This document shows, one piece after another, positions 8,101 through 24,716 of a stretch of DNA of 64,000 nt (positions within the stretch are counted from its first letter, which is position 1; every line of letters starts with the position of its first letter). Below the pieces are notes generated by a model. That model worked only from the letters and a program-made list of their open reading frames with translations. It had not been told where the DNA came from and made no database searches. The position numbers were made by a program, and so were the translations under genes. This DNA comes from Planctomycetota bacterium (GTDB lineage Bacteria; Planctomycetota; UBA8108; UBA1146), in assembly GCA_028825265.1 (NCBI GenBank), contig JAPKAM010000001.1, positions 386 to 64,385 on the forward strand, written 5' to 3'.

Positions 8101-9800
8101 GACTCTCCCTCTTCAGCGACCTGATCGAAGAAGGACTCCTCAGCGAGGATCAATTGAACGAGTGCCAGCAGGAGGAACGCTCCACCGGCAAGGCACTCGA
8201 CAAGATCCTGCGTGAGAAGGGCTATGTCACCGAGGTGGCTCTGCTGGAGGCGCTGTCGAAGAGGCTACGCATCCCGTACCTCGCTGATCTCAGCGATTGC
8301 ACTGTACCTACAGAATTCACCCACATGGTGCCGCCACAGTTTGCGCGCACCTACAACCTGGTCGCCGTCAGCGAGACCCCGGGAGTGATTCATATCGCCA
8401 CCTGTGATCCGCTCGATGTCCAACCGATGGATGACCTCGCTGCAATGGTCGGAAGAGTCATCGAGCCGGTGATCTCCCCTCGCGCGGAAATCATCGCATT
8501 GATCAACCGAGCGTTCCAAAAATCGAGTGCAGATGTGGACGAACTTCTCGAGGGTCTCGACGAAGACGACCTGATCGGAATCGCCGCAGAAATCGACGAG
8601 ACTGAAGACGTACTCGATATCGCCAACAAGGCTCCGATCATCAAACTGATGAACACGATCATGTTCGAGGCGCAAAAGAACCGAGCATCCGACATTCACC
8701 TGCAGCCTTTTTCCGATCGGCTCCAGGTCAGGTATCGCATCGATGGAATTCTTTACGACACCAAGGTTATTCCCAAGAAGATCCAGGACGCACTCGTTTC
8801 CAGGGTCAAGGTGATGGGAAAGATGGATATCGCAGAGCGAAGGCTCCCTCAGGATGGTCGAACCTCACTCAGGGTCGGAGACGGCGAACTGGACGTGAGG
8901 ATTTCCTCGGTGCCAACCAGTTACGGCGAGAGAATCGTGTTCCGCCTTCTCGACAAGACGGCACGCCTCTACGAACTTGAAGAGATCGGACTCGATCGAG
9001 AGAACTACCTGATACTCGAAAAACTGATCAACTCTTCCCACGGAATCTTGCTGGTCACAGGACCAACCGGTTCTGGAAAGACCACGACCCTCTATGCCGG
9101 CCTGGCCGAGATGGACTCGCAAGAACTGAACATCATCACCATCGAAGATCCCATCGAATACAACCTCGATACCATCAGCCAGATTCAGGTTTCGACCAAG
9201 AAGGGTCTCACCTTCGCCTCCGGACTTCGATCGCTGATGCGTCAGGATCCGGATGTGATGATGGTGGGAGAGATTCGAGACGAGGAAACAGCCGGAATCG
9301 CTGTACAGGCATCGAATACCGGACACCTAGTCTTCTCTACCCTACACACCAATGATTCCGCCGGTGCGGTGACTCGAATGATCGATCTCGGAGTCGAACC
9401 TTATCTGGTTTCATCTTCGCTGATTGGCGTGGTTGCCCAGCGACTGGTGAGAGTGATCTGTCAACGTTGCAAGGAATCCTATGAGCCAGAAGCTAGCGAG
9501 CTCGCGAATCTTGGGCTAACCCGAGATGAACTGCTCGAAGGCATGCTCTATCGCGGTCGAGGCTGTGAAAATTGCCTGGGTAGAGGCTACTACGACCGGA
9601 CCGCCATCTACGAGATCCTGACCATCAATGAAACCATTCGAGATCAGATCATCGCACGCACCAGTGCCTCGGTGATCAAGCAGGTCGCCGTCGAATCCGG
9701 TCACCTGAAAACCTTACGTATGGACGGAGCCAAGAAAGTGGCTCTGGGAATCACCACGACCGATGAAGTTTTTCGAGTCACCCAGATGGATGTCTTCTAG
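8097..9800 (+). CDS. gspE: Type II secretion ATPase GspE (GspE_N domain plus secretion NTPase)
   Basis: Walker A GPTGSGKTTTLYA. Asp/His boxes; TGHLVFSTLHTNDSAGAVTRMIDLGVEPYLV. Tetracysteine motif CQRC...CENC. ATGA overlap with gspD. Confidence 0.92.
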   Translation: MRLSLFSDLIEEGLLSEDQLNECQQEERSTGKALDKILREKGYVTEVALLEALSKRLRIPYLADLSDCTVPTEFTHMVPPQFARTYNLVAVSETPGVIHIATCDPLDVQPMDDLAAMVGRVIEPVISPRAEIIALINRAFQKSSADVDELLEGLDEDDLIGIAAEIDETEDVLDIANKAPIIKLMNTIMFEAQKNRASDIHLQPFSDRLQVRYRIDGILYDTKVIPKKIQDALVSRVKVMGKMDIAERRLPQDGRTSLRVGDGELDVRISSVPTSYGERIVFRLLDKTARLYELEEIGLDRENYLILEKLINSSHGILLVTGPTGSGKTTTLYAGLAEMDSQELNIITIEDPIEYNLDTISQIQVSTKKGLTFASGLRSLMRQDPDVMMVGEIRDEETAGIAVQASNTGHLVFSTLHTNDSAGAVTRMIDLGVEPYLVSSSLIGVVAQRLVRVICQRCKESYEPEASELANLGLTRDELLEGMLYRGRGCENCLGRGYYDRTAIYEILTINETIRDQIIARTSASVIKQVAVESGHLKTLRMDGAKKVALGITTTDEVFRVTQMDVF

Positions 9801-9819
9801 AAGTTAGCCAGGAGCGCGG

Positions 9820-11034
9820 ATGCCAATCTACTCCTACCAGGCCGTCGATAGCCGTGGTCGCAACAAGAAGGGTACCATCGATGCCGATACGGCACGCGAT
9901 GGCCGCGACAAGTTGCGTCATCAGAAACTCCGCGTCACGAAGATGCAGAGGATCGATGCCATCGCTCGTGGAGGTGGGACTGCCGGCCGCTTCCAATTGC
10001 AGCGCAAGGCCAATATTCGTGACCTGGCCATCCTGACGCGACAGTTTTCCACTCTTCTCGCTTCCGGAGTTCACCTCTCGGAAGCGTTGACAGTTCTGGT
10101 GGAGCAGATCGAGGATCGAAGGATGGAAGTAATCTTTCGCGACATTCGCGAGAAGATCACTTCGGGAACGGGACTGGCGGATGCATTTTCACTGCACCCT
10201 GCATACTTCAGTGATCTCTACATCAACATGGTCCGGGCCGGTGAGGCGAGCGGGAACCTCGATGAGGTGCTATTGAGTCTCGCGAACTACCTGCAAAAAC
10301 AAGCATCCATCCGTGGGAAGATCTCCGCAGCACTGACCTACCCAGCGATCATGGTGATGGTCGGAATCATGGTCGTGTCCTTCTTGATGACCTTCGTTGT
10401 GCCAAAGATCACCGAGATGCTGCTCAAGAAGGGCAATGTCTTGCCCCGCCCCACCGAGATCCTGATCTTCATCAGTGACATGTTCAAGGCGTACTGGTTG
10501 CCGGGAATGATCTTCGCCCTGATTGCGATGGTCTTCTTCAGGGCCTTGATCGCTACCGAGAAGGGGCGGTTGATGTACGACACCTTCCTGCTGAAAATCC
10601 CGGTCATCGGATCCCTCTTGCAACGATCCGCCATCTCTAGATTTACAGTAACCCTGTCCATTCTGCTCAAGAGTGGACTGCCGGCCCTCGACGCCCTGAA
10701 CATCGTTGGAAAGGTCGTCAACAACGCACTGATGGCCAAGACCCTCGCTCAGGTTGCAGACCGAATCGTTGAAGGTGCTGACATCTCCACGCCACTCAAG
10801 AAATCCAAGATGTTTCCGCCCATGGTAGGCTACATGATCGCCGTTGGAGAGCAGAGTGGAGAACTCGAAAGCGTACTCGATCGGATCTCAGAGGCTTACG
10901 AGGAAGAGATCGATCTCTCCATACAGCGTCTGACAGCCATGGTCGAGCCGGTCATCATCGTACTACTCGCGGTGGCCGTTGGATTCATCGTCATGGCCGT
11001 ACTGTTACCACTATTGCAGTTCAACAACCTGTAA
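9820..11034 (+). CDS. gspF: Type II secretion inner-membrane platform protein GspF
   Basis: Two GspF/PilC-type repeats with three TM segments. Typical segments EALTVLVEQIED..., GEASGNLDEVL, and C-terminal VEPVIIVLLAVAVGFIVMAVLLPLLQF. Confidence 0.9.
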   Translation: MPIYSYQAVDSRGRNKKGTIDADTARDGRDKLRHQKLRVTKMQRIDAIARGGGTAGRFQLQRKANIRDLAILTRQFSTLLASGVHLSEALTVLVEQIEDRRMEVIFRDIREKITSGTGLADAFSLHPAYFSDLYINMVRAGEASGNLDEVLLSLANYLQKQASIRGKISAALTYPAIMVMVGIMVVSFLMTFVVPKITEMLLKKGNVLPRPTEILIFISDMFKAYWLPGMIFALIAMVFFRALIATEKGRLMYDTFLLKIPVIGSLLQRSAISRFTVTLSILLKSGLPALDALNIVGKVVNNALMAKTLAQVADRIVEGADISTPLKKSKMFPPMVGYMIAVGEQSGELESVLDRISEAYEEEIDLSIQRLTAMVEPVIIVLLAVAVGFIVMAVLLPLLQFNNL

Positions 11035-11081
11035 AACCTTCCCGGCAATTCCGGGATGAAATTAATGATTAGGAGGCGGCC

Positions 11082-11501
11082 ATGAACCGTCGAGAGCACA
11101 AACCGACAGCGGGATTTTCGCTGATCGAATTGATTGTCGTTATCACGATTCTAGGAATCCTTGCCAGCACCGTGGTAGTGAGCGTGTTCGGCCGATCGGA
11201 CCAGGCGAGAGTCGCCGCCGTTCGCGCAGACTTCAGCAGCATCATGACCGCTTCACGATTGTTCAGGGAAGACCACAAGCGTTGGCCTGACAACATCGAG
11301 GAATTGCTTTCTCCGCCAGCCACTCAAAACGGTTCCAATATCGATTACCTCTCTTCAGAGCCTCTCGATCCATGGACCCTCGAGTACTACTACTACGAGT
11401 TGGGTGATCGGGGTCCGCTTCTCATCTCCTTCGGAGCCGATGGCATCGAAGGTGGTGATGAGTACAACACCGATATCTACTCCGATGAGAGTGGACGCTG
11501 A
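11082..11501 (+). CDS. gspG: Major pseudopilin GspG
   Basis: Prepilin signal ...TAGFSLIELIVVITILGIL (G|F cleavage site, Glu+5). GspG hallmark ...DPWTLEYYYYELGDRGP...SFGADG. Confidence 0.9.
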   Translation: MNRREHKPTAGFSLIELIVVITILGILASTVVVSVFGRSDQARVAAVRADFSSIMTASRLFREDHKRWPDNIEELLSPPATQNGSNIDYLSSEPLDPWTLEYYYYELGDRGPLLISFGADGIEGGDEYNTDIYSDESGR

Positions 11502-11505
11502 GCTC

Positions 11506-12036
11506 ATGACTCGGCAAGCCACGACTGCAGGTTTCACCATGATCGAGTTGATCGTCGTCGTGACGATCCTCGGCCTGCTTGCATCGGTTGTGGCCCCGAG
11601 GCTTGACGGACTTTCACCCAAGTACCGCCTCCGATCCGGAGCCCGTACTGTCGGCCAGAATATCAGCTGGGCGCGAAGTCTCGGCGGCGGTGTCGGTGAA
11701 GAATACGTGATCCAGTACGATCTGGCCCAAAATTCCTTCACCATCGTCTTGCCTCCACAAGAAGATGAAGACCCCGAACTCGAGATCGACATGCGTCAGA
11801 CGATGGGAATTCTAACGCTTCCTGATGGGATCGAGATCAGCAAGATCATGCACCCCGATGGTGGATCCGATGCGTACGGAATTGTCGACATCACTCTCGA
11901 TGAGTACGGCACAACTGGATCTCACATCGTGATTCTGACCAATGAAAATAACCAATCGATTGCGGTCCACTTCGAGGCGATCATCGGCAGTATCCAGTAC
12001 AAGCCCGGCGACGAGGCGGAGTTCCCTCGATGGTAA
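11506..12036 (+). CDS. Minor pseudopilin (GspH-like by position)
   Basis: MTRQATTAGFTMIELIVVVTILGLLAS prepilin N-terminus. I place the start at ATG 11506; the track ORF 11404 would overlap gspG. Confidence 0.7.
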   Translation: MTRQATTAGFTMIELIVVVTILGLLASVVAPRLDGLSPKYRLRSGARTVGQNISWARSLGGGVGEEYVIQYDLAQNSFTIVLPPQEDEDPELEIDMRQTMGILTLPDGIEISKIMHPDGGSDAYGIVDITLDEYGTTGSHIVILTNENNQSIAVHFEAIIGSIQYKPGDEAEFPRW

Positions 12037-12503
12037 ATCATGACTCCAGGATGCTGAGCGCTCGGGATGGATTCACTCTCATCGAACTGGTGATGGCGTT
12101 GGCCATCATCGGCGGATCCTTCCTCACCCTGCTATACATGCGAACCGATGCCGTGGATCGAGCCTTCAACTACAATCATCAACGGTTGGTCGAACGTGTT
12201 GCGAGAGAATTACTGGATGAGGCGGCTTTTGGCATCTCGGAAGGGTTGGACGGAACGGCACAACTTCCTGGCAGCGACAGTTCTTCAACTGGCTGGCCCT
12301 GGTCCGCCATTGTGACGGATCTCTCCACCGAAGAGACCGGCCCACGACTGCTCGAGATCACCTTAACCCTCGAGTATCCGGGGCCCGATCTGATCAGTTC
12401 GGAAGAGTACGTCTTGACGACTCGAGTCTTAGTCGATGCCGATGATCCACTCGCCACCAATGCCCAGACTCTGAACTCTTATGATAATGGAGCGGGATTC
12501 TGA
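12030..12503 (+). CDS. Minor pseudopilin (GspI-like by position)
   Basis: ...SARDGFTLIELVMALAIIGGSFL prepilin N-terminus. Small size (157 aa). Confidence 0.65.
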   Translation: MVNHDSRMLSARDGFTLIELVMALAIIGGSFLTLLYMRTDAVDRAFNYNHQRLVERVARELLDEAAFGISEGLDGTAQLPGSDSSSTGWPWSAIVTDLSTEETGPRLLEITLTLEYPGPDLISSEEYVLTTRVLVDADDPLATNAQTLNSYDNGAGF

Positions 12504-13420
12504 TGTCACAAAAAGGATTCACCCTCATCGAACTGATCGTGGTACTGGGGATGTTCACCATCGTGATGTCGATGTGCTACACGATCCTCGACACCACCCT
12601 TGAGGCGGATCGAAGAATCCAGAAGGCCACTCTCACCGGCAAGGTTGGAGAGGCGATTCTCGGCCAGATGAGACGCGATCTTCAGGGCGTCGCCTGGCGT
12701 GGTCTCGGAACAGATGTTTTCCGTGGTGAAGATCGTGGCCAGGATGAGAATGCCGAGGACTCGATCGATTTCATCACCACTTCACCGGTGGCTGAGCCCT
12801 CAGAGGACACCCCCAACTGGACCGGAGAACTCAGTTCCATCGGCTACGCACTGCGACCAGGAAAAGATGGAGACAGCGTGCTGTTTCGCAGGATCTCGTG
12901 GGATCTGACCGAGGATTCTTTCGATTCCGGCGAGCGAAGTGCCATCTACGACCGAGTGATGGCTCTCAACTTCGAGTTCCTCGGAGAGGAGGGCGAGTGG
13001 CTCCAGGAGTGGGACGCCTCGACCTTGCTGCCGGACCAGAATCTGACCGACTTCCCCTACCTCGATGAGAGGGCGGCCATCGCAGCGATGGAAGCGGAGG
13101 AAGCGAGTGGGTCAGGCGGCGCGACCGGCGCATCGGGCACGGAGACCGGCACGGCGCCAGGATCGGTCCTGCAGCCGGGTGATATCGACCCCGCAACTGG
13201 CGAGGAGATCGTCGAGGAGCCGCTCCCACGACCTCTCCCCAGGGCTGTCCGCATCGTTCTTTACCTGCACTACAGCAATGAACAGGGACAGATCCTCAAC
13301 AACGATGGAACCCCGTTTGAGGAAGTTTTTTCGACCATCATCCCCTTGCTCTCTGCGGAGCAGATCCTGGTCGAGGATCCTGCATCCTTGCTGCTCGAGG
13401 GGAGCAACAGCAGCTTCTGA
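12503..13420 (+). CDS. Minor pseudopilin (GspJ-like by position) with acidic low-complexity C-terminal region
   Basis: MSQKGFTLIELIVVLGMFTIV prepilin N-terminus. Follows the GspI-like gene with a 1-nt overlap. Confidence 0.65.
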   Translation: MSQKGFTLIELIVVLGMFTIVMSMCYTILDTTLEADRRIQKATLTGKVGEAILGQMRRDLQGVAWRGLGTDVFRGEDRGQDENAEDSIDFITTSPVAEPSEDTPNWTGELSSIGYALRPGKDGDSVLFRRISWDLTEDSFDSGERSAIYDRVMALNFEFLGEEGEWLQEWDASTLLPDQNLTDFPYLDERAAIAAMEAEEASGSGGATGASGTETGTAPGSVLQPGDIDPATGEEIVEEPLPRPLPRAVRIVLYLHYSNEQGQILNNDGTPFEEVFSTIIPLLSAEQILVEDPASLLLEGSNSSF

Positions 13421-13451
13421 CAACACGACCCCACCGAATGCATCAATGGAG

Positions 13452-13530
13452 GGGCCTCCGGAAGGATATGGCAAGAACTCGGATTGCGTGATCCCCAGGT
13501 TCGAGCCCCGGAGGCCCTACTTTTCTTCTC
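13452..13530 (+). terminator. Candidate complex terminator or structured RNA downstream of the gspD-J operon
   Basis: 10-bp perfect inverted repeat GGGCCTCCGG (13452-13461) / CCGGAGGCCC (13508-13517) encloses ~46 nt. It is followed by TACTTTTCTTCTCC (U-rich). Confidence 0.35.
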
Positions 13531-13653
13531 CAGATGCTCCTAGACGTACCTACAGCGGTAGAAGAGTATTTGACAGAGGGCCCTGCAACTGTGCCAAAAT
13601 CGCACATGCCCCCTCCCTAGGGCCCCATTCAAGCCTCTCCAGAGGCCCCTTTT

Positions 13654-13670
13654 TGGCACTGATGATGCTC
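13654..13670 (+). promoter_or_regulatory. Candidate sigma-54 promoter (TGGCAC-N5-ATGCT)
   Basis: TGGCACTGATGATGCTC. Perfect -24 hexamer TGGCAC at 13654-13659. GC at 13667-13668 is 10 nt after the GG. It is oriented toward the Kelch lipoprotein gene, ~450-530 nt away. Confidence 0.3.
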
Positions 13671-14116: not shown

Positions 14117-16018
14117 ATGAGCCCCCACGTCAGATCTCATCCGGAGTTTCACGGCTTCACCGATCGTCAAACCTCTCACTTCAGATGGATGGGTCTACTC
14201 ACCATCTGCCTTCCTATGCTGCTGGGATTCGTCGGATGTCACGGAGACATCAGCTCGGTTCCAAACATCAACAACGCTGCTGCGTTCCTCGAAGATAATG
14301 CGACATACATCGGCCCTTCGATGGTTTCTCCGCGTTATGGACACACGGCGACCACTCTTGAAGACGGAACCGTACTGGTGGTCGGTGGAAGTGATGAGAG
14401 ATTCCTCACCTCCCTCGATGTTTCAGAGATTTTTGACCAAGGAGCCAGTGTCGGTCTCAACCAAGCGATTCCCGACACGGTTTCCGGAGACTTCATCGAT
14501 ACCGATGTCGAGGGCAATCTGATGCTGCTCGCCCAAGGTGGCCGAGTCTTCCATACCTCCACCCTGCTACCCAACGGCAATGTGTTTATCTGCGGTGGAA
14601 CCGGAGATGCCCTGTTTGCCCAGGCCACCGAGGTGTCCGAGATCTACGACATCAGCAGTCGTGAATTTGCCCCGGATTTCCTCCAGTTGAACCAGGACAT
14701 GTCCATTCCGCGATTCCGCCACAGCGCCACTCTCCTGCCCAACGGCCGAGTTCTGATCGCTGGAGGCCAGGAATCAAGGTCAGAGACGATCATCGATCCG
14801 AATTTCGCACCGGGCCAACCCGGTTTCCAGGTCGATATCAACGTCTTCCCCTCTCTCAAGTCGATGGAGATTTTCGATCCCGGAGCCCTCGCCTTCATCC
14901 CCGCCATCTCGGCCAACGGTGACGATGCCGAATTCCTCAGTGCACGCGGTCGGGCGGGACACAGCATGCAAGGATTGGCTGGATTTGATGGGCTTCTGGG
15001 AACCACCGATGACATCCTCCTCAGTGCCGGGGGATTCCAGACTCTCTCGACCATCTTCGCTCCACAGTTCAAGATGCCATGGCAGCAGGACACCAGTAAC
15101 TCGGCCAATTTCGAGTACTTCGATGCCACCACAGGAGATAACCGGATCGCCGCGGGCATCGTCGCCGCTGAACGTGTCAACCAACCACAAATCATCAACC
15201 TGGGTATCCATCGCAGGTCGACCCTGGAGTTCGACTTTGATCCCGAGGATGGAATTATCGACATCCCCTCGATCGATGGATTGAACAATATCGTCCTGAT
15301 TGCAAATGGTGACAACGACGATCCTGCTTGCCCCACTGGTAGTGGAAGCAACGATCTACTGGTCGCCACTTTCAGCAATTTCGGACCTTCCAACGGACTG
15401 ACCTTTTCCCTCTTTGGCGGTGAGGCCACACTCTTCAACAACATCGAGTTGATCGTCTTCGACCCGATGAACTGTGCGTCCTTCTCTCGTAGTGAGGCAG
15501 ACCTGGTTCAGGTGCAAACTCGTCGGACTTACAATGGAGTAACGATCGCCACGACCGTTGGATTGAGCGCCGGCGGAGCCTTCGAACTTCCCACGCCCAA
15601 TGGTTGTGTCGAGTTGATGCAGGGTACCTGCGCCAACGGAATCGTCGGCGTGAGCATTTACGATCCGTTCTACAATGCGGCGAATGACCCCCCCTGGGAT
15701 CCGACCGACAACATCAATCCGATCACGCACCCGACTGGTATCTTCGGCACCTTCATCAACGTCGATGGAGTGATCGCGGATGACACCTTCGATGGGTTCG
15801 CCGACGGAAGCCTCCTGATCGCTCTGGCGCAGGCAAAGGTGCTTCACACTTTGAGTGTGGTTCCAGGTGAAGATGGCGTCCTCAACAGTGTCGATGACCG
15901 GGTCGTGTCGATCGGGGGCGGCGTCAGCTACTTCCCGAACTTTGGCGATGAACCGGCCACCATCAACTGCGAAGTGATCATGCTGCCAGGAACCAATGCG
16001 ACGAATCCGACTCCGTAA
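14117..16018 (+). CDS. Kelch-repeat beta-propeller lipoprotein
   Basis: The probable true start is M at 14189 (MGLLTICLPMLLGFVGC, lipobox LGFVGC). Kelch-type repeats: RYGHTATTLEDGTVLVVGG, FHTSTLLPNGNVFICGG, RFRHSATLLPNGRVLIAGG. Confidence 0.75.
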   Translation: MSPHVRSHPEFHGFTDRQTSHFRWMGLLTICLPMLLGFVGCHGDISSVPNINNAAAFLEDNATYIGPSMVSPRYGHTATTLEDGTVLVVGGSDERFLTSLDVSEIFDQGASVGLNQAIPDTVSGDFIDTDVEGNLMLLAQGGRVFHTSTLLPNGNVFICGGTGDALFAQATEVSEIYDISSREFAPDFLQLNQDMSIPRFRHSATLLPNGRVLIAGGQESRSETIIDPNFAPGQPGFQVDINVFPSLKSMEIFDPGALAFIPAISANGDDAEFLSARGRAGHSMQGLAGFDGLLGTTDDILLSAGGFQTLSTIFAPQFKMPWQQDTSNSANFEYFDATTGDNRIAAGIVAAERVNQPQIINLGIHRRSTLEFDFDPEDGIIDIPSIDGLNNIVLIANGDNDDPACPTGSGSNDLLVATFSNFGPSNGLTFSLFGGEATLFNNIELIVFDPMNCASFSRSEADLVQVQTRRTYNGVTIATTVGLSAGGAFELPTPNGCVELMQGTCANGIVGVSIYDPFYNAANDPPWDPTDNINPITHPTGIFGTFINVDGVIADDTFDGFADGSLLIALAQAKVLHTLSVVPGEDGVLNSVDDRVVSIGGGVSYFPNFGDEPATINCEVIMLPGTNATNPTP

Positions 16019-17141
16019 CTCGAAGCTGATCGACCGCTCACCTCATCGGCTTCCGGTGAAGTCCACCTCGAGGATTCGAGGATGGGGTCAATCGGGTCGC
16101 GTCCACAGCGCCATCCCCACCGTGCTCGCTCTGGTGGCTCTCGGCTGGGTGCTGGCGTACCTGTGGATCCCGACCCGATCACCTCAAACCAGCAGTCCCC
16201 AGACTGGGGTCACAGAAGTGATCCAGAAGAATCGATCGGGATCCCCGGCCACCGACTCCACCGGAACCACAGCTTCGGAAGCCCTCTCCCCACTCGACTC
16301 CCTCTCGCCGCAGATGAGAACCATTCGCGAGCAGTTGGACCGCTTGTTTCTTAAGACACAATGGAATCAAGCGATGGACGCGTCCACCGCTCACAGGGTG
16401 GCTCGAGCTCGTGAAGACCTGGAATCCTATCTCGATTCGCTCGCAGAAGAACATGTCCCGCTGCTGCTGGGCTTGCTGGCAGAAGAACCCGATTTCATCA
16501 ACCGCCGCTTCTTGCTTCGAGCGCTCGGGAAGATCGGGAACGATGAAGCTCTCGCAGGACTGCTGGATCATTTCAACTGGGCTGCAGGAAACTCCAAGGA
16601 AAGCGAAGTCAAGCACACCGTGGCGGCCCTCGCGGCAGCCAACAATGACCGATCTTTCCAGATTCTGAGCGACTACGCTGTCGCGGAGGAGACCGAAACC
16701 CACCGCTATCGATTTGTCGGTGCTCTCACCCAGCACTCGAGATCCGCCGATGCGATCGGGATCTACTCGGAGTTACTGACCGATTCTTCGCACTTCAGAG
16801 TGCGCCAGCGAGCCGCTTTTGGGATGAAGATCTCGGGCGGGATCGCACAGGCTCATGAGGTAGAAACAGCCCTTGTGGATGAGGGCAATCCATACGTTCG
16901 ACAATCATTCCTGGGGGCTCTCGGAGGCATACGAGATGTACGATCGGTTCCCCTGGTTAGCCGTATCCTGCAAGGGGATGAGGTTCTGGCCACCCGCGTC
17001 TCTGCAGTCAGGGCCTTGCTTCGCATCGAGGGAGATGCGGTGGTAGACGCCTTGAGGGCTGCCCGCGATGACATTTCTCAGCCACAGAGGGTCCACGAAG
17101 AAGTGCTCCGAGCCCTCGATTCGTTGGGAATCTCTGGCTAA
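15996..17141 (+). CDS. HEAT/PBS-lyase-type repeat protein with N-terminal membrane anchor
   Basis: TM segment IPTVLALVALGWVLAYLWI. Repeated ...RxxAxxALGxIG... units: RRFLLRALGKIGNDEAL, VRQRAAFGMKI, VRQSFLGALGGIRDVRSVPLVSRIL, RVSAVRALLRI. The start is uncertain (ATG 15996 overlaps the upstream gene; GTG 16057 is an alternative). Confidence 0.65.
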   Translation: MRRIRLRNSKLIDRSPHRLPVKSTSRIRGWGQSGRVHSAIPTVLALVALGWVLAYLWIPTRSPQTSSPQTGVTEVIQKNRSGSPATDSTGTTASEALSPLDSLSPQMRTIREQLDRLFLKTQWNQAMDASTAHRVARAREDLESYLDSLAEEHVPLLLGLLAEEPDFINRRFLLRALGKIGNDEALAGLLDHFNWAAGNSKESEVKHTVAALAAANNDRSFQILSDYAVAEETETHRYRFVGALTQHSRSADAIGIYSELLTDSSHFRVRQRAAFGMKISGGIAQAHEVETALVDEGNPYVRQSFLGALGGIRDVRSVPLVSRILQGDEVLATRVSAVRALLRIEGDAVVDALRAARDDISQPQRVHEEVLRALDSLGISG

Positions 17142-17256
17142 CGGGTCCGAGGCACTCTTGAGAATCGGCCGCTGCGATGTCACGATCCTACTCATGGCAG
17201 GACCCCGGTGCCTTCAGCACTGGATCACATCCCCAGAAGATGCAAGGAGAGGCTCG

Positions 17257-19401
17257 ATGATCTGGCAACTTTGGAAGCCACCATCATCTCCATCTCCGAT
17301 CGGACTGCTGCTGCCCCCGCTGCTTCTCCTGCTGCTGCTCGGTGTCATCGGCTGTCAACCGACCTCTCATCCGGCACTGATCTCGGCACGGATCGACGGC
17401 CTTCTCGAAGACGGGCTGGGTGAAGGAGATCAGATCATCCTGGTCCTCGATGCTGCGCTGGAACTGACTGCAAGCCCCCGCGTCGGTCTGATGATCGAGG
17501 GCGCCACGGGCTCGGAACAGTACTCGTTTCACAGTACAGAGGACCACAATGTACTCATCGTCGAACTCGAATCGGGGTTTGACCATCTCGACCTGATCAA
17601 TTCCGATCGCTCCGTGCTGGTCTCCCTGGACCTTGGCTTGCTGGGTCTCAAGGACGACCTTGGACAACCCCTCGAAGGTGTGGTGGGACCGGCGATTCTG
17701 CAACTCCCTGTGGCAGAACCGGCGATTCTTGAGGATGCCCGCTGGATCGATTCCGATCGCAGCTCCACCGTCAATCGGGAAGACTTGCTAGTGCTTCGCT
17801 GGAATCAACCGGTCCACTTCTCGCAGACCCTACGAGATCGCAAACTCCAGATCTCACCCAGTCTGATTCGACTTTCGGTAAAAGGGGATCAGCTGGGATC
17901 TAGCAGGATTCCTGCTCGTTTCCTCGATGGTCCTTCCTCCAGAGAAACCAGCATCCTGCTGGGAGAACTTCCCTTTCTCACGATCGATGGGATGCACGAG
18001 CACAGTCGATCGAGATTTGAAGGCTCCCCCAGTGCCATCGCCGTGACGGGCACCACCATCTTACCCTCGCTGGATCTGGTCACCGATCAGGGAGGAGGGG
18101 TGGCTTCGCCGGTAGTGGTGGATCTGGAGGGAGAATGTGCACCCTGGCAAGACCTCGAATTACCTCCGGGGTTACCGGCGCTTGCGGGGCACTCTCTGAC
18201 TCGATTGCCAGGCGGCAAGGTACTGATCGCTGGTGGCCGAGCGCTGATGGCAGGATCCTCCGGAAGGGCGCTGGCCAGCGCCTGGATCATCGATCCACTA
18301 GGAAATCACCAGGGGCCCATCTCGATGCAAGCGGCGCGTGCCGACCACTGCGCGACTTTGCTCCCCGGAGTCGACGGGTTGCTGGAAACCAATGACGATC
18401 TGGTTCTGATCACCGGCGGCTGGGATGGATCTCGGGCTCGTGATGACGCCGAAGTACTGCTTTTTTCCGCTGAAAATAGCCACTTCATTCCGGTCGAAAC
18501 CAGTGCCCCTTCCAGTGCAAGATTCGATCACTCGGCCCATCCGATTGCTCAGTTGAACACCGTGATCCTGGTGGCTGGTCGCCTCGATGGAACTTTGAAC
18601 GGACTCATCGAACAGGTCGAGATTGAAATCCTCGACAGTGACACTGGACCGAAGGCGATCAGCACGACCTACCAGATCGGTGAGTTGCGCTATCCAAGGC
18701 ACCAGCATGGTTCGATTCTGTTCGAAGATTCCGAACAACCGCTGCTGCTACTCTATGGTGGCTACGGTGGATCCCTCGGTACTCCACACGTCCAGTTTGA
18801 TACGGAGCACTGCCGGGTCCTCGACAATCCTGAAGCATTTCGGATCCGTGCCGACTCCAGGACCACTCGTGCCCTCCTGATCGATGAGCCCGAGTTAAAC
18901 TTGCCGGGACCTCGTCGCGGCTTGCGGCTCCATTCGATTGGAGATAGTTCCTCCCAGGGAAACCGGGCCTTGCTGATCGCGGGAACACGCAGAGAACCCA
19001 ATCCGGATGCGTTGACCCCATTTCAACCGACCGAATGCAGGACCAGTTATCTTCTCGAGCAACAGGATACGAAATTCGGTCGCATCCGGTTGCGTTGGAT
19101 TCCAGCGGGCAGACTTCCGGTCGAACTCTACCAGCCCAGCATCGTGGGACTTCCTGGTGGCAGGATCCTGATCGCTGGTGGCTATGACCGCGGTGGACTT
19201 CCAACATCGGAAGCGGCGATCTACGACCCCTTCTCGGGAGTTGTGGAGCGGGTGTGCAAACCTCTCAGCAGAGAATCCGCCCAGGGCGAAGAATTGCTGC
19301 TAGCACCGCAGTCCGTCGCATTGTGGGGGGGAGCACTGATTATAGCCGCTTCGCCGGAAAGCCGCACCAGTCGGGCATTGCTGTTCAAGTCAGGAAACTG
19401 A
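17257..19401 (+). CDS. Kelch-repeat beta-propeller lipoprotein, paralog of the 14189 gene
   Basis: Start M at 17257 (MIWQLWKPP...LLLLLLLGVIGCQ, lipobox). Kelch-like repeats: LTRLPGGKVLIAGG, HCATLLPG..VLITGGWDG, RHQHGSILFEDSEQPLLLLYGGYGG, LPGGRILIAGGYD. Confidence 0.75.
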   Translation: MIWQLWKPPSSPSPIGLLLPPLLLLLLLGVIGCQPTSHPALISARIDGLLEDGLGEGDQIILVLDAALELTASPRVGLMIEGATGSEQYSFHSTEDHNVLIVELESGFDHLDLINSDRSVLVSLDLGLLGLKDDLGQPLEGVVGPAILQLPVAEPAILEDARWIDSDRSSTVNREDLLVLRWNQPVHFSQTLRDRKLQISPSLIRLSVKGDQLGSSRIPARFLDGPSSRETSILLGELPFLTIDGMHEHSRSRFEGSPSAIAVTGTTILPSLDLVTDQGGGVASPVVVDLEGECAPWQDLELPPGLPALAGHSLTRLPGGKVLIAGGRALMAGSSGRALASAWIIDPLGNHQGPISMQAARADHCATLLPGVDGLLETNDDLVLITGGWDGSRARDDAEVLLFSAENSHFIPVETSAPSSARFDHSAHPIAQLNTVILVAGRLDGTLNGLIEQVEIEILDSDTGPKAISTTYQIGELRYPRHQHGSILFEDSEQPLLLLYGGYGGSLGTPHVQFDTEHCRVLDNPEAFRIRADSRTTRALLIDEPELNLPGPRRGLRLHSIGDSSSQGNRALLIAGTRREPNPDALTPFQPTECRTSYLLEQQDTKFGRIRLRWIPAGRLPVELYQPSIVGLPGGRILIAGGYDRGGLPTSEAAIYDPFSGVVERVCKPLSRESAQGEELLLAPQSVALWGGALIIAASPESRTSRALLFKSGN

Positions 19402-19432
19402 TCGGCATCAATTTCAGCGACCGTTCCTCAAC

Positions 19433-19571: not shown

Positions 19572-20120
19572 CTATCGCGCGGCCGTCTCACCGCTGTAAT
19601 TCACAAGCACCAGGTAGAGTTCCCATGACTCCGCCTCGGTCTCATTCTTGGCCCTGTTGGTGAGTTTCACCTTTTCGAATCCGAGGTGAGGTGCCCGCGA
19701 CTGAATATGAGCCAAAAATGTGATCTGTTCACGTAAGGGTCTATTTTCAAAGGTCGCCGCATAACTGTGCTTGGTGATGCCAGCGGTGACATCCGCATCA
19801 TTGCTTTGACTCTTGATCTCTGGCTTCGAAGAACTATTTTTCATCGATTCGATGATCTCGGCGATGGTGGTACTGATCTTGCCAGAGTTTTTCTTGCTCT
19901 CCTCGCGACGTAAATGCTCAAGAACCACCTCTTTACTCTCAGCGCTATTGAGCAAATCCTTCAGGTTCATCAGATTCTGGCTCTCTCTTACGGTAGCAGC
20001 ACGGTACTTTTCAGCACTGGTGTGAAGCCAGTACCCCCAGCCACCGAATACCGCTGAGCAAAGAAACAGGGTCAGGAGTATGATCTGCGTCAGATCACTG
20101 GTTTTTCCACGGTCTGTCAT
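19572..20120 (-). CDS. GspM/PilO-like bitopic membrane protein (putative T2SS GspM)
   Basis: 182 aa. N-terminal TM LTQIILLTLFLCSAVFGGWGYWL, then coiled-coil and periplasmic domain. Positioned immediately downstream of the GspL-like gene. Confidence 0.5.
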   Translation of the reverse strand: MTDRGKTSDLTQIILLTLFLCSAVFGGWGYWLHTSAEKYRAATVRESQNLMNLKDLLNSAESKEVVLEHLRREESKKNSGKISTTIAEIIESMKNSSSKPEIKSQSNDADVTAGITKHSYAATFENRPLREQITFLAHIQSRAPHLGFEKVKLTNRAKNETEAESWELYLVLVNYSGETAAR

Positions 20121-20122
20121 CG

Positions 20123-21865
20123 TTAGTTCCTCCCGCCAGTTCCAGTGATCGATTCCTTCAACTTCAACTTCAGGGTGACCTTTTTTCGATCTCCCGCAGG
20201 CTTGATGTCATCTTCGATGTTGAAGTATTTGGACTTCTGCTCCAGAGCCGTGATCACTCGCTCTCCGGCAGCGGCATCGGGAACCTCGAAGATCACGGTG
20301 GAGGTTCCGCCTCGTTTCTTGGCGCTATTGATCTCGATCGATTTCCAGGTCGGATAGACCTTGGGATTCGCTGCGGAGATCCCACCGGTCACATCCTTGA
20401 TCAGGTCCATTCCTGGTAAGTACTGCACAAGCCTTGCACGCTTATTGGCTCCCGTCCCGCCCTTCAATTCTGCGATCTTCAGTTCTGCACTTCGGACAAA
20501 TACAGGAGAAGAGCCCTTTGGAGCCTCTCCAAATCTAGCCATGAAGACGTCGCGTTCGTTGGCTCTCACCGTTTCAAACTCTGCTCGGCGGAGTTGCTTA
20601 CCTCGATGGCTATCGATCAACCAAGTCACGGACATGAAGCACAGGATCAAGCCCATCAACATCAGCCCCGGGAGCAACTTTGAAAATCTGCGCTCATACC
20701 GGTGCTCTTCTTTGCGTAAATCAAATCGAACTAATCCTTGCCCTGCAGACTGAAGCGCGAGTCCTACAGCCACACCTCCCGATAGGTTACAGCGATCGAC
20801 GAGATCCAGGGGCAATCCCGTTTCGATGCCGTCACAGACACGTAACTGCTGTGCGGGCACTTCATATTCCTCTGCCAAGCGATCTGCAATCCCCAGTTCA
20901 CAAGCGGCACCTCCGGCAACAACAATTCGATCGAGAGGCGATCTCATCAGGATTCCTGCAAAGGTCCGCTCGATCTCGGTGAATAATCGACCGATCACCT
21001 CATCGGGATCCGCTGGAGGAAGGGTTGGAGACGATGAGAGTTCCGCATTCAACCGCTCGAACTCTTCATCCGAAACCACCGCAATTGCGAGTTCATCTTC
21101 GGCGGCAGTTTCAGCAGCGACTCCTCCGCCTTGCATCAGATCTGCAAACTCCATCGCAGTCTCTGACTGGGCGCTGTCGGAACCACTAGCAGTCGCTCCG
21201 GCACTCCCGGTCGATGCAGTCGTCAGCGTCGGAATCGCGGAACGTTGGAGATGATTCGAGGTCGATCGAATCTTCGTGACCCTTCCTTCCTCTAGTAGGA
21301 CGAAGGTCGTATGGCCCGCTTCCATACCGATCAGAAGGGTCCTTCCGCCTCGCAGATCTGGCCTGGCTACATGAAGGGAAGTCGCCAGGGCCGTGGCATC
21401 GATCTCGATCTGGACCGGATCCACCCCACCTTCGCGAAGCATCTCCAGATGAGCTCCGACCAGTTGTTTCTGCACCGCACTGATCAGGAGCCGGCTCGAA
21501 TCTTCAGTTTCCGAACACTTGATGTATTCGATGACCAGATCATCGATGGAAGCCGAAGGAAGGTGCCCCTCGCTCTCGTACCGGATCGTCTTGGAAATGA
21601 CATCGTCATTTGTGAATGGAACCGATATCTCCCTCAAGGTAGACATACGGGTTGGGATGGAACTGACGACATCGATCGTCTTGCTTCCGTGACTATCTAG
21701 TGCACTACGAAGGATCGCTCGCAGAGACACGAGGCGCTCCTCGCTATTGTCTCCGACAATCTTTCCCTCGATGTAGTCGATGATGACGGTCTGTTTCGAA
21801 GTGGCTTCCACCACTGCGATCGAGACGTCAGGACCATCGATCTCTATTCCTGCGTGCAGGGCCAC
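20123..21865 (-). CDS. GspL-like protein (PilM-like cytoplasmic actin-fold domain + TM + PilN-like periplasmic domain)
   Basis: N-terminus MALHAGIEIDGPDVSIAVVE... (PilM/GspL cytoplasmic domain style). Internal TM LLPGLMLMGLILCFMSVTWLI. Gene order is gspK, (C-like), L-like, M-like. Confidence 0.6.
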   Translation of the reverse strand: MALHAGIEIDGPDVSIAVVEATSKQTVIIDYIEGKIVGDNSEERLVSLRAILRSALDSHGSKTIDVVSSIPTRMSTLREISVPFTNDDVISKTIRYESEGHLPSASIDDLVIEYIKCSETEDSSRLLISAVQKQLVGAHLEMLREGGVDPVQIEIDATALATSLHVARPDLRGGRTLLIGMEAGHTTFVLLEEGRVTKIRSTSNHLQRSAIPTLTTASTGSAGATASGSDSAQSETAMEFADLMQGGGVAAETAAEDELAIAVVSDEEFERLNAELSSSPTLPPADPDEVIGRLFTEIERTFAGILMRSPLDRIVVAGGAACELGIADRLAEEYEVPAQQLRVCDGIETGLPLDLVDRCNLSGGVAVGLALQSAGQGLVRFDLRKEEHRYERRFSKLLPGLMLMGLILCFMSVTWLIDSHRGKQLRRAEFETVRANERDVFMARFGEAPKGSSPVFVRSAELKIAELKGGTGANKRARLVQYLPGMDLIKDVTGGISAANPKVYPTWKSIEINSAKKRGGTSTVIFEVPDAAAGERVITALEQKSKYFNIEDDIKPAGDRKKVTLKLKLKESITGTGGRN

Positions 21866-21907
21866 GACAGGGCTCCTCTCGAATCATCCTCGGGATGGGA
21901 ATCATGA

Positions 21908-23071
21908 CTAATTTGGCTGATTTTGTTGACGGGCTCTCTGAAGTTCCTTGAGACGACGAATCGCTTCCTGAGGGTTGGACTCGACATCCACGCCGAGTGC
22001 CCCTTCCAAGGTCGTCTGCCTCACTGTTGGTTTGGGAGTCTTGGTGGATGTTCCGCCACGAAGTTTTGGCTTGACCGGATTCGGAGGGACTTGCGCTCCC
22101 CTCCTTTGGGACCTGGGATCACCTACATTTCGATTGTTACTTCTGGGATTCACCGCAGCCTTGTTGGTGGGAGACCTGGTCGCAGCGCCTCGGGGTGGAG
22201 TACCTCCGGAGGGAGGCTTGGATGCAGCGGTTCCCCGCATCTCTTTGCCGTCATTACCACGAATCCAGCCTCTCTCATCTCCGGGGATCGCTCCCACCCG
22301 ACCGGCAGCACTGACTCCGGCCCCGGAACCCGAGAGGAGTTCCATTTCCTCCGGGCTGAAGCCCCGGAGCACCAGCGTCTGGCCTTCTTCATGGATCACC
22401 GGATCGGTGATCGATTCCTGCCGAAGGGTGTAACTGCGACCGTTGTGCTCGTAAATCACCTGCTTGGGTTGGTCCTGAATTTCGACCACCATGTAGCGGT
22501 TCTCATCAATTCGAAACTCTTTCCCCTGTTCCAGGTATCGCACCCGTTGGTTCGAGACCTGGCTGCGATTCGTTCTGGAGTTGTTCAGCCGACTGGTCGG
22601 GGAAGCTCCACCACCTCTGGGGGCCCGACCACGAACACGGGTAGTTGTGGTGGCACGCCCGTTACGGCTATTCGATTTGAGGACGTTGGTTTGCCCCTTC
22701 TCCTGGATGGATGCGAATCGCTGTCCCTCAGCAGAAAAGATGACTCCAACGATCTCCCATTCTCCGATGGGGCCAGTATCGAGTGACGGAAGCGTCGACT
22801 CGACTGGTTTGACCACAGCCACAGGAGCCTGTGGTGCAGAGCGGTAAAGTTCGCCAATGATATCCCGATACTGGTTTGGAACCGGGCGAGCCGCCTGCTC
22901 CTTCAATTCAAAATCTTGCGGATTGACCAGGCGTACCTTGACCCCCTGTGGAGATTCGAGCAGCAGATCGAACAATACGAATCCGAGCAGGGTCATCGCT
23001 GAAATGTTGAAGAGCAGAATTCCGCCCCGAAGTAATTGGATGCTTACTTTTGGCATCGTCTGATCCTCCAC
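21908..23071 (-). CDS. Bitopic membrane protein with Arg/Pro/Gly-rich C-terminus; possible GspC/PilP-like T2SS component
   Basis: N-terminal TM ILLFNISAMTLLGFVLFDLLL. Lies between gspK and the gspL-like gene. I do not recognise a PDZ domain; this is a context-based call. Confidence 0.4.
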   Translation of the reverse strand: MEDQTMPKVSIQLLRGGILLFNISAMTLLGFVLFDLLLESPQGVKVRLVNPQDFELKEQAARPVPNQYRDIIGELYRSAPQAPVAVVKPVESTLPSLDTGPIGEWEIVGVIFSAEGQRFASIQEKGQTNVLKSNSRNGRATTTTRVRGRAPRGGGASPTSRLNNSRTNRSQVSNQRVRYLEQGKEFRIDENRYMVVEIQDQPKQVIYEHNGRSYTLRQESITDPVIHEEGQTLVLRGFSPEEMELLSGSGAGVSAAGRVGAIPGDERGWIRGNDGKEMRGTAASKPPSGGTPPRGAATRSPTNKAAVNPRSNNRNVGDPRSQRRGAQVPPNPVKPKLRGGTSTKTPKPTVRQTTLEGALGVDVESNPQEAIRRLKELQRARQQNQPN

Positions 23072-23078
23072 GAAATCT

Positions 23079-24674
23079 TCATCGTCGTACTTCCTTCCAG
23101 GAAATCACAACAACATGCTGGCCTTTCCTAGCGCACACCATTCTACCCGAGAGAGAGCGATCCTCGCTCGTACCTTCGATGGTAGTGGTGAAAAAACTGC
23201 TAGAAAAGACAATATGATCCTCAAGGTCTTGCTGCAGAAGTGCGAATACTGACTCGTCTGAGCCACTGTCGTCTTGCCAAGTCTCATCGACCTGCTTTAG
23301 TTGCTCGAATCGGGAGAAATACTCGAATTGCTGCACTTCCTCCTCATCCACACCGAATTCGCTGAGGAGATCCTCGAGGATTTCCCCAGTCACGTCATCG
23401 ATCTCCTGCTGGTAACTATTGCAATGATCTCGAATCTGCCAGGCGATTTCCTTGGCCTCATCGAAGTCCTCGAAAGATCGAAGCATGGCCATCAGCACCT
23501 CAGGCCTGGCGGTATTGAGGTTGATCTTGCCCGATGAGTTTGCGGTCATGACATGTCGAAGACCGATGGGAGTCGGAATTTGATCCACTCCGCCATCGAG
23601 TAACTCGAACCCGGATGACTCCAGATCGTCGAATGATCCGGGAATCAGCGACTGTAAATCTTCCATCATTCCGGGGGAATCTTCCTGGTCGTATTGGTCC
23701 TCTTCTTCCAGCGTCGCCGGATCGATGGGGCCGTAGAACAGTTCCCAGGTGACTTCTTCCAGCTGACGGATCGTATCGAGACTGCGAATTCTACGCAGAT
23801 TTTCATCGAGAACCCGCTGGTGAACCATCGAGACGATCGCCTCTGCTGTGCCCCCTGGATCAGGAGTGTCGATGTAATCGAATCCATTTTCAGTGTTGAA
23901 ATCGATGACCGCCTCGATCAACCGCTCGAGAATCACTTGGGCCTCGTCCACTTCTTCTTGCTCGGGAGGCACGAACTCTTCTAGCAGCCCCGCTTCCTGC
24001 AGTAGCCCATCAATTGCAGCGTTGCCAGCGGCCGCTTCTTCGAGGGCATCGAGATCGCTGTCCTCTTCCTCGGGCAAGGCCGCGAGCGAGAAGATGTGAT
24101 TGAGATCGATACAGGATTCTCCGTCGACCACCACTCCAACGACCTGGACGCCATTGATGGTTTCCTGGATCGGATGAGCCCAGTTATCATGGTGGGTATC
24201 CACCGGGTCATCGTCAGATGGGTTTTCACCCGTACCACCCTGGCCTCCTCCTCCACCCGATCCGGGGAGAGTGAGTCCTCCGGGAAGTTGGGTTCCGACC
24301 CCTTCCCCTGCGGTATCCATTCCAGCCAGAGCATCCTCCTCGAGATCATCCTCGAGGTAACCAAGATCTTCCATCAGGTCGGTGGAGAGTTTCAGCAGCA
24401 CCTGGCGCCCCGAGGCCTGCAAGGCATAGGAAAGAGCCGTTCTTCCCTGCCGATTGCGCGAGATCCGTTCCTCGATTTTTGTGACGAAGATCAACTGGGT
24501 GATGACGACCGTCAGGACCAGCACCAGGATCAGCACCACGAACAACGCAATCCCCCCCTCGGGGGATCGTGTCGCATTCTCGCTGGCTCGCGGCGGCTGA
24601 ATCATCAGATCTCCGGTCATCGGTTCAATTTCAAACGGGTCCAATTCAAACGAGTCGACGAAGAGTTCCCTCAT
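23079..24674 (-). CDS. gspK: Minor pseudopilin GspK (long form with acidic insertion)
   Basis: Prepilin-like N-terminus without Glu+5 (GGIALFVVLILVLVLTVVITQLIFV). GspK hallmark INLNTARPEVLMAMLRSF (helix-hairpin-helix). 531 aa with a long D/E-rich insertion. Confidence 0.7.
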   Translation of the reverse strand: MRELFVDSFELDPFEIEPMTGDLMIQPPRASENATRSPEGGIALFVVLILVLVLTVVITQLIFVTKIEERISRNRQGRTALSYALQASGRQVLLKLSTDLMEDLGYLEDDLEEDALAGMDTAGEGVGTQLPGGLTLPGSGGGGGQGGTGENPSDDDPVDTHHDNWAHPIQETINGVQVVGVVVDGESCIDLNHIFSLAALPEEEDSDLDALEEAAAGNAAIDGLLQEAGLLEEFVPPEQEEVDEAQVILERLIEAVIDFNTENGFDYIDTPDPGGTAEAIVSMVHQRVLDENLRRIRSLDTIRQLEEVTWELFYGPIDPATLEEEDQYDQEDSPGMMEDLQSLIPGSFDDLESSGFELLDGGVDQIPTPIGLRHVMTANSSGKINLNTARPEVLMAMLRSFEDFDEAKEIAWQIRDHCNSYQQEIDDVTGEILEDLLSEFGVDEEEVQQFEYFSRFEQLKQVDETWQDDSGSDESVFALLQQDLEDHIVFSSSFFTTTIEGTSEDRSLSGRMVCARKGQHVVVISWKEVRR

Positions 24675-24699
24675 CGGGAGGGCTCACTGCCCTATTGAT

Positions 24700-24716
24700 C
24701 GGCAGATCTCATGCCA
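24700..24716 (-). promoter_or_regulatory. Candidate sigma-54 promoter upstream of the gspK operon
   Basis: Minus-strand reading TGGCATGAGATCTGCCG: GG-N10-GC spacing, -24 TGGCAT, -12 CTGCC. The -12 element is ~27 nt 5' of the gspK start codon. Confidence 0.3.

Follow-up and report, generated by a model that had tools for sequence, protein, structure and literature searches.

What is the role of three uncharacterised genes that lie in the middle of a type II secretion system (T2SS) locus in an uncultured member of the Planctomycetota? The 64-kb stretch of DNA analysed here, referred to as the window, comes from a Planctomycetota metagenome-assembled genome (MAG), and L-numbers are labels of the related loci with which it was compared. 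In the window, the three genes, hereafter the triad, sit between gspD-E-F-G-H-I-J and a convergent gspK-(C-like)-L-M operon. They are predicted to form a unit encoding two lipid-anchored beta-propeller proteins (K1 and K2) and a membrane-anchored helical-repeat protein (the HEAT protein) from a promoter of their own. The gene orders described below make functional coupling of the triad to the adjacent T2SS very likely. The reading that we favour, more tentatively, is that K1 and K2 are dedicated T2SS-dependent surface lipoproteins, and that the HEAT protein is their membrane-anchored chaperone. The three genes are the following.

14117..16018, + strand: K1, a predicted lipoprotein of 633 amino acids (aa) with a seven-bladed Kelch propeller and lipobox Cys41 (open reading frame (ORF), Pfam, alignment and AlphaFold)
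15996..17141, + strand: the HEAT protein, 381 aa, with an Arg/Lys-rich N-terminus, a transmembrane (TM) helix at aa 40-58, a linker rich in Ser/Pro/Thr and a HEAT solenoid of the PBS-lyase type
17257..19401, + strand: K2, a predicted lipoprotein of 714 aa with lipobox Cys33, an N-terminal region rich in beta structure (about aa 40-300) and a Kelch propeller at the C-terminus

The original prediction described two Kelch lipoproteins with the signals LGFVGC and LGVIGC, flanking a HEAT/PBS-lyase repeat protein with an N-terminal anchor, packed as an operon and embedded in a T2SS locus. Each part of this description stands. All three ORFs are present where it placed them. The HEAT start overlaps the K1 stop by 23 nt, and the HEAT-K2 gap is 115 nt; in other genomes, the K1-HEAT spacing is 15-210 nt. 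Each triad protein has a single hydrophobic segment, N-terminal in all three. NCBI annotates the proteins only as “hypothetical” or “HEAT repeat domain-containing”, K1 being the hypothetical protein OSB09_00060.

The linkage to gsp genes, on which the original prediction had staked its case, was found in every sampled locus long enough for neighbours to be seen. A scan with the K1 alignment, restricted to one genome per species, yielded 31 loci, the neighbours of which were identified by tblastn with all window proteins. The loci are labelled Planctomycetota, Planctomycetia or unclassified bacterium, except for one MAG (L019) labelled Bacillota. The order gspD-E-F-(G)-H-I-J / K1-HEAT-K2 / gspM-L-X-K, with the last block on the reverse strand and X denoting a possibly GspC-like protein, is observed where the contig suffices in 25 of the 31. 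Three genomes account for the remaining six loci, which are extra K1 paralogues; each of these genomes also carries a linked copy. Five of five distant K2-family members whose contigs were fetched have the same triad, and those with enough contig carry it after gspJ and before reverse-strand gspM/L-like genes. Identities in these distant loci are 27-33% for K1 and 26-31% for K2, where tblastn detected them. Further triad-bearing loci, some of them more diverged (GspL-like protein about 44% identical), were revealed by a metagenome scan via the GspL-like protein. No K2- or HEAT-family member was found outside gsp loci among the loci sampled.

Linkage also persists in L009, L042 and L043, members of a second subclade in which sdhA-like and HflX flank genes replace the RND pump. 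In L042 alone, a 466-aa ORF (7767-9167, + strand), which lacks a Pfam match and is transposase-like by eye, lies between K2 and the gspM-like gene, and the triad-gsp arrangement is otherwise intact. Since linkage outlasts flank replacement, the L042 insertion and a drop to 26-33% protein identity, selection appears to act on the arrangement. In one related lineage (L058, L059, L076 and L077), detected in the metagenome scan, gspK-X-L-M is followed by unrelated genes, not by K2-HEAT-K1-gspJ. For instance, L076 (6648-12407) keeps the sdhA-like and HflX upstream flank, and features unknown genes, a penicillin-binding protein transpeptidase and a Mur ligase downstream. The T2SS locus of this lineage is thus split, and the triad may sit next to gspD-J elsewhere in the genome.

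In K1, LGFVGC occupies aa 36-41 and LLPNGRVLIAGG aa 206-217. Four Pfam models score above their cutoffs, namely Kelch_4 (43.4 bits, cutoff 21.6), Kelch_6 (32.8, cutoff 25.3), Kelch_2 (26.2, cutoff 21.3) and Kelch_1 (20.6, cutoff 20.1), with matches above threshold confined to residues 70-220. Pfam recognises only 2-3 blades each in K1 and K2. The AlphaFold model of K1, obtained with a 28-sequence alignment, has a predicted local distance difference test score (pLDDT) of 79 and a predicted template modelling score (pTM) of 0.83. It displays the closed fold of four-stranded blades typical of Kelch-repeat beta-propellers, and the K1 alignment contains seven R-x-x-H...GG motif units. The confident model and the seven units together indicate a seven-bladed propeller with large insertions. 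Structure prediction, proposed earlier as a check on blade count and on a galactose-oxidase-like fold, thus returned both for K1, the modelled fold of which is galactose-oxidase-like with seven blades.

We rejected K1 as a copper radical oxidase or galactose oxidase (AA5), because family membership fails although the fold agrees. The NCBIfam GlxA model scores 24.7 bits on K1 (cutoff 800) and Pfam Glyoxal_oxid_N 19.7 (cutoff 37.5). Against solved oxidases in the PDB, the profile matches consist of single blades, out of register. K1 stops directly after the last blade and so lacks the C-terminal domain by which the copper site is closed. The copper site of AA5 enzymes comprises two Tyr and two His ligands and a Cys-Tyr cross-link; as judged from the sequence alignment, the invariant His residues of K1 belong to the per-blade R-x-x-H Kelch motif and form no obvious copper site. 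No lectin-type signature was found in the Kelch proteins, and the suggestion in the original prediction that they bind carbohydrates or surface ligands gained no specific support.

In both Kelch proteins, the signal peptide closes with a lipobox whose cysteine is invariant (L-G-F-V-G-C41 in K1, L-G-V-I-G-C33 in K2), and they are hence predicted to be lipoproteins, substrates of Lgt and LspA. The cysteine is retained in all K1 orthologues, in all aligned lipobox-type K1 paralogues and in all K2 orthologues, the divergent second subclade included. Some orthologues have atypical residues at lipobox positions -2/-3, such as I-H-G-C in K1 of L009. Beyond the lipid-attachment site, K1 has four invariant cysteines (405, 453, 497 and 505), which suggest disulfides and fit an oxidising compartment. 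Some K1 paralogues unlinked to gsp genes feature a signal peptide, a dockerin-like domain and He_PIG immunoglobulin domains, and one of them adjoins a weak cohesin match. Because of these architectures, the K1 propeller is probably an extracellular module.

The longest K2 ORF starts at 17068 (777 aa). The start at 17257, which yields 714 aa, coincides with the NCBI-annotated start (P0121, 100% identical) and is conserved in orthologues. LGVIGC is located at aa 28-33. Kelch_1 (28.0), Kelch_6 (26.9) and Kelch_4 (25.9) score above their Pfam cutoffs, and the matches fall at residues 374-727 in the numbering of the 777-aa ORF. The predicted model (pLDDT 70) shows a beta-rich N-terminal region of about 260 residues followed by the propeller, which matches the six-bladed propellers of KLHL12 and Keap1 in Foldseek (target-normalised template modelling scores of 0.65-0.69). 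K1 and K2 share an unusual blade motif, PG-x-DG-x-L-x-T-x-DD-x-V-x-x-GG, and are, by sequence, distant paralogues. The N-terminal region of K2 recurs as a repeat in giant proteins of 3-4 thousand residues. An exhaustive profile search places about 60 full-length representatives in the K2 family at 50% clustering, more than a word-indexed search had suggested.

The middle protein scores 60.9 bits on HEAT_2 (cutoff 27.7) and 22.3 bits on HEAT_PBS. Its sole hydrophobic helix, at aa 40-58, is conserved in position, preceded by an Arg/Lys-rich N-terminus and followed by a variable Ser/Pro/Thr-rich linker. By the positive-inside rule, the Arg/Lys-rich N-terminus would leave the solenoid facing the periplasm. 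Family matches in Pfam and NCBIfam are limited to HEAT_2, HEAT_PBS, NblB and CpcE-type models, and a PDB profile search returned alphaRep and HEAT proteins only. The HEAT protein was accordingly rejected as a homologue of the lipase foldase Lif/LipB or of CpaB, to which it has no sequence relation. A second HEAT protein is encoded in the window at 41715-43796 (- strand); it is a 693-aa protein in which HEAT_2/HEAT repeats are joined to a C-terminal peptidyl-prolyl isomerase of the cyclophilin type, a folding catalyst.

The locus that surrounds the triad is organised as follows.

2794..4665, + strand: sigma-54 bacterial enhancer-binding protein (bEBP) with FHA-GAF-AAA+-HTH_8 domains, at the head of the gsp locus (Pfam)
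4662..13420, + strand: gsp operon
4662-5435, + strand: Secretin_N protein, 257 aa
5746-8100, + strand: GspD
8097-9800, + strand: GspE
9820-11034, + strand: GspF
11082-11501, + strand: GspG
about 11506-12036, + strand: GspH-like protein
12030-12503, + strand: GspI-like protein
12503-13420, + strand: GspJ-like protein
19572..24716, - strand: convergent gsp operon, running toward K2
23079-24674, - strand: GspK-like protein
21908-23071, - strand: bitopic protein of 387 aa, possibly GspC-like (X)
20123-21865, - strand: GspL-like PilM_2 protein
19572-20120, - strand: GspM-like protein

This locus is of the T2SS type, as GspE, GspF, the GspD secretin and GspG are all recognised. GspE scores 635.1 on TIGR02533, above the NCBIfam equivalog cutoff of 630.25; T2SSF, Secretin with Secretin_N, and T2SSG exceed their Pfam cutoffs; and minor pseudopilins are present. 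Other components score lower. GspD reaches 273.8 on TIGR02517 (cutoff 351.35), the GspK-like protein 36.6 on the GspK model (cutoff 130), and the GspL-like protein, below the curated GspL cutoff, matches only the PilM_2 and Amuc_1101 families. The GspM-like and GspC-like proteins have no family match in Pfam or NCBIfam, and neither GspC, N, O and S nor a pilotin was recognised with these databases in the gsp locus. An AsmA/GspN-type Pfam match is likewise absent from the gsp-locus ORFs and from the other window ORFs of at least 200 aa examined. Two Akkermansia family models (Amuc_1101 and Amuc_1098) are weakly matched by the GspL-like protein and the secretin, which suggests a type IV filament/T2SS lineage common across the Planctomycetes-Verrucomicrobia-Chlamydiae (PVC) superphylum. 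An RND efflux system lies beyond the convergent operon.

In the bEBP, the motifs GAFTGA and ESELFGH are intact. Its gene occupies the same place in most related loci that are long enough, and is absent there in L004/L031 and L034. A Ser/Thr protein kinase gene lies directly upstream with a 4-nt overlap (the pair spans 1004-4665, + strand), and an FHA domain beside a kinase suggests phosphothreonine-dependent control of the activator. GspE carries an N-terminal MshEN domain (residues 9-55 and 57-143), which barely reaches the NCBIfam cutoff for the cyclic-di-GMP-binding motif (39.5 bits against 38). This hints at a machine gated by cyclic di-GMP as well as by sigma-54.

The gap between gspJ and K1, about 700 bp long, holds three conserved blocks, and a fourth element of interest precedes the gspK-like gene.

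13448..13529, + strand: terminator-like hairpin directly 3' of gspJ, about 80 nt, conserved
13570..13606, + strand: TTGACA hexamer (13570-13575) and perfect palindrome TGTGCCAAAATCGCACA (13590-13606), a candidate activator/operator site
13654..13668, + strand: sigma-54-type -24/-12 element TGGCACTGATGATGC, lying about 450 nt before the K1 ATG
24716-24702, - strand: sigma-54-like element TGGCATGAGATCTGC before the gspK-like gene

The hairpin combines an outer stem of 11 bp, rich in G+C (GGGGCCUCCGG / CCGGAGGCCCU), with an apical core that is invariant (UUGCGUGAUCC) and a U-run. Its minimum free energy is -38.6 kcal/mol (z = -2.95). The DNA of the hairpin is 89-95% identical between loci whose flanking proteins are 55-75% identical. 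Within the window's subclade, all gsp-linked loci with coverage of the region contain the exact core, and compensatory changes in the outer stem occur in L004, L034 and L039. A covariance model detects one copy per locus, at 63-96 bits on the + strand versus 19-35 bits on the - strand. The element has the same position in L001, L003, L008, L011, L013-L016, L019, L020, L024, L025, L027, L029 and L032, and is weak in L004 and L039. A tRNA or a known RNA family was discarded as its identity, ARAGORN and Rfam both being negative. The hairpin may be more than a terminator, for instance a small RNA derived from the 3' untranslated region or a protein-binding hairpin.

The hexamer and palindrome blocks are recognisable in 10 of 10 aligned loci. 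The palindrome is invariant at most positions; the hexamer reads TTGACA in eight of the ten, TCAACT in L003 and TAAACG in L004. Within the 64-kb window, the palindrome is unique, and we regard it as a possible operator or activator site of the promoter that serves the triad. Matches to TGGCAC-N5-(T/A)TGC with 0-1 mismatch, on the right strand of the gspJ-K1 gap, were found in 16 of 18 loci scanned, against about 0.02 chance matches per 700 bp by our own estimate. The match is perfect in L001, L003, L008, L020, L024, L025 and L029, in which the spacers differ. In the second subclade, the element is present in L009 and L042, and no match with 0-1 mismatch occurs in L043/L044. A conserved -24/-12 element, with GG at -24 and GC at -12 in fixed spacing, and a bEBP with GAFTGA are the sequence motifs of a sigma-54-dependent promoter, and the triad operon is very probably under a sigma-54 activator. 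A scan for sigma-70 and terminator consensus sequences gave matches no more frequent than in shuffled sequence.

Read-through from gspJ into the triad as one operon was rejected in view of the conserved hairpin and the separate -24/-12 promoter. Set apart from gspJ by these two elements, the triad forms a transcription unit of its own, and transcription of gspD-J most likely stops at the hairpin. Elements similar to that before the gspK-like gene are found at the same place in L003, L008, L009, L011, L013, L034, L043 and L044. Since the palindrome was not found at the gspK promoter, co-regulation of the triad and the gspK operon by one activator is unsupported. The leader of K1 also contains short tandem repeats (13732-13770 and 13825-13875). 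A 16-bp tandem repeat, GTTCCTCAATCGCACA, in 7.9 copies (alternatively 48 bp in 2.6 copies; 19423-19548), occupies the convergent gap between the K2 and gspM-like stops.

How might the triad work? K1 and K2 would leave the cytoplasm via Sec, receive a lipid at the conserved cysteine and fold into Kelch propellers in the periplasm. The HEAT protein, tethered to the inner membrane and projecting its alpha-solenoid into the periplasm, would act as a dedicated T2SS chaperone or dock for both. It would keep them at the inner membrane, off the default lipoprotein sorting route, and hand them to the machine. The T2SS would then carry both propellers over the outer membrane, where they would serve as lipid-anchored surface modules for ligand binding or enzymatic activity, and the sigma-54-controlled operon would be dedicated to the adjacent T2SS. 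The topology, chaperone role, T2SS dependence and surface exposure are what we infer here, and they are set beside the domains, lipoboxes, gene order, linkage and promoter motifs observed.

We tentatively favour this arrangement of cargo and chaperone on several grounds. T2SSs place lipobox proteins on the surface, as in PulA of Klebsiella and InvL of Acinetobacter (PMC12802150). Members of the membrane-associated T2SS chaperone class, as defined by Harding et al. 2016 (PMC4713064), are encoded beside their effector in the same unit, and have a TM helix at the N-terminus and a C-terminal domain in the periplasm. The HEAT protein, encoded between K1 and K2, with a TM helix and a solenoid domain that would be periplasmic in the predicted orientation, agrees in silico with each of these features. 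Moreover, the K1 propeller is reused in paralogues with extracellular-type architectures, and Kelch propellers are binding or catalytic modules. The conserved lipobox cysteine and the invariant cysteine pairs of K1 also count as cargo-like features.

Several observations weigh against cargo and chaperone. T2SS cargo sets usually differ between genera. K2 and the HEAT protein, in contrast, accompany the machine at every sampled locus despite deep divergence, a pattern more typical of a machine part, and their strict one-copy co-conservation with the machine fits an accessory component equally well. The triad also diverges like periplasmic Gsp proteins. In L034, K1, HEAT and K2 are 42, 31 and 30% identical to their window counterparts, GspL, GspM and GspK 41, 32 and 34%, and GspE 75%, figures in which the rates of the triad resemble those of periplasmic T2SS parts. 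Known T2SS lipoprotein cargo requires the AsmA-like GspN/PulN (PMC12802150), a match to which was absent by Pfam from the locus and the window, although the rest of the genome could hold a copy. The HEAT protein shows no relation to Lif/LipB or CpaB in Pfam, NCBIfam and PDB profile searches. The residues after the lipobox cysteine are undiagnostic, as they are Gly/Ser-rich like those of many lipoproteins, and all relatives are uncultured MAGs.

It is possible, if doubtful, that the triad is instead a structural accessory of a Planctomycetota-type T2SS, in which K1, K2 and an inner-membrane HEAT scaffold form a lineage-specific sub-complex. Such a complex would assemble, anchor or gate the secretin or the pseudopilus, replacing pilotin, GspA/B or GspN roles. 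The confinement of K2 and HEAT homologues to gsp loci, always in the same slot and with K2 identity as low as about 26%, would be expected of machine parts, as would the divergence rates, which match those of periplasmic components in L034. The locus also lacks a detectable pilotin, GspN or canonical GspC, and sigma-54-type promoter elements occur at both the triad and the gspK-L-M operon. However, neither a Kelch propeller nor a HEAT protein is known among T2SS or type IV pilus components, and canonical T2SSs function without such proteins. Dispersed K1-propeller paralogues with extracellular-type architectures would be unusual for a machine part. In the L076 lineage, finally, the gspK-L-M operon has no triad next to it, though the triad may accompany gspD-J elsewhere there. 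In its strongest form, about which we are equally hesitant, the triad would consist of unrecognised structural subunits that bridge the inner membrane and the secretin, replace pilotin/GspC/GspN functions and define a new architectural class of T2SS.

We consider it unlikely that the triad is an independent envelope module which happens to lie near the T2SS and is perhaps co-regulated with it, such as a complex for ligand binding or sensing in the periplasm or outer membrane. Linkage would then reflect shared regulation or slow genome rearrangement in the clade. The triad has its own promoter, a terminator-like hairpin insulates it from gspJ, the palindrome upstream of K1 was not found at the gspK promoter, and gene order in the window's subclade is conservative even in the RND pump flank. 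Yet the linkage survives replaced outer flanks in L009, L042 and L043, the transposase-like insertion beside K2 in L042, and protein identities of 26-33%, which argues for selection on the arrangement.

K1 as a PilY1/PilC-like propeller on a minor pseudopilin tip complex is highly improbable and was discarded: its gene comes right after gspH-I-J, resembling fimU-pilVWXY1, in which pilY1 follows the minor pilin genes, and PilY1 has a C-terminal propeller, but K1 and K2 have no PilY1/PilC Pfam match at E <= 1, the best 50-60 matches listed per fold search contain Kelch, WD40 and other propellers instead of PilY1/PilC, and K1 is a lipoprotein with a separate promoter behind a terminator-like hairpin.

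We regard the locus as that of a T2SS equipped with a module of lipoproteins and a scaffold which is dedicated to it, lineage-specific and previously unannotated. The literature searched contained nothing relevant linking Kelch proteins with T2SSs or Planctomycetes, or HEAT proteins with T2SSs. T2SS biology is based almost entirely on Proteobacteria; to this, the locus adds a conserved, uncharacterised three-protein module from widespread uncultured Planctomycetota, marine and in some cases from soil. If K1 and K2 are cargo and the HEAT protein is their chaperone, the triad would name the one conserved thing that the machine places on the cell surface, and the idea of membrane-anchored T2SS chaperones would extend to a HEAT scaffold. 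If the three proteins are machine parts, they would define a new T2SS architecture. Under either reading, the regulatory layout is legible, comprising a bEBP, a palindrome, a -24/-12 promoter and an RNA-like element absent from Rfam. Another T2SS client may be encoded elsewhere in the window (56119-61083, - strand), where a 1654-aa subtilase (Peptidase_S8) with five PKD domains has the appearance of a large secreted protease; such a role is plausible.

Compared with canonical proteobacterial systems (Gsp/Pul/Eps), the locus has the same core of GspD, E, F and G, H/I/J/K-like pseudopilins and L/M-like proteins. It differs in its division into two convergent operons, which flank the triad, in the presence of a sigma-54 activator at its head and in the MshEN domain, of the cyclic-di-GMP type, on GspE. 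Moreover, GspD, GspK and GspL fall below curated cutoffs, GspC, N, O and S are not recognised, and the resemblance of the GspL-like protein is to Amuc_1101, a PVC-type family. AA5 oxidases (galactose oxidase, glyoxal oxidase and GlxA of Streptomyces) have a C-terminal copper-site domain that K1 lacks.

Among surface proteins delivered by T2SSs, PulA, InvL and SslE of E. coli are the closest parallels to K1 and K2. The pulA and SslE genes adjoin secretion genes, and pulA is co-regulated with them. Like these proteins, K1 and K2 have a lipobox signal peptide and are encoded beside secretion genes, and they would likewise pass through a folded periplasmic intermediate. In contrast, PulA is a glycoside hydrolase, InvL an invasin-like adhesin and SslE a mucinase, whereas K1 and K2 are Kelch propellers. 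The three known proteins depend on GspN/PulN, which is not seen in the window, and their distribution is narrow and strain-variable, while the triad is fixed across a deep clade.

The HEAT protein is best compared with Lif/LipB, which serves lipase, and with CpaB, which serves CpaA. Like these, it adjoins its candidate clients and has a single N-terminal TM helix. The periplasmic domain of Lif is an all-helical scaffold. Lif/LipB and CpaB each have one client, whereas the HEAT protein, which is not similar to them in sequence, is flanked by two candidate clients.

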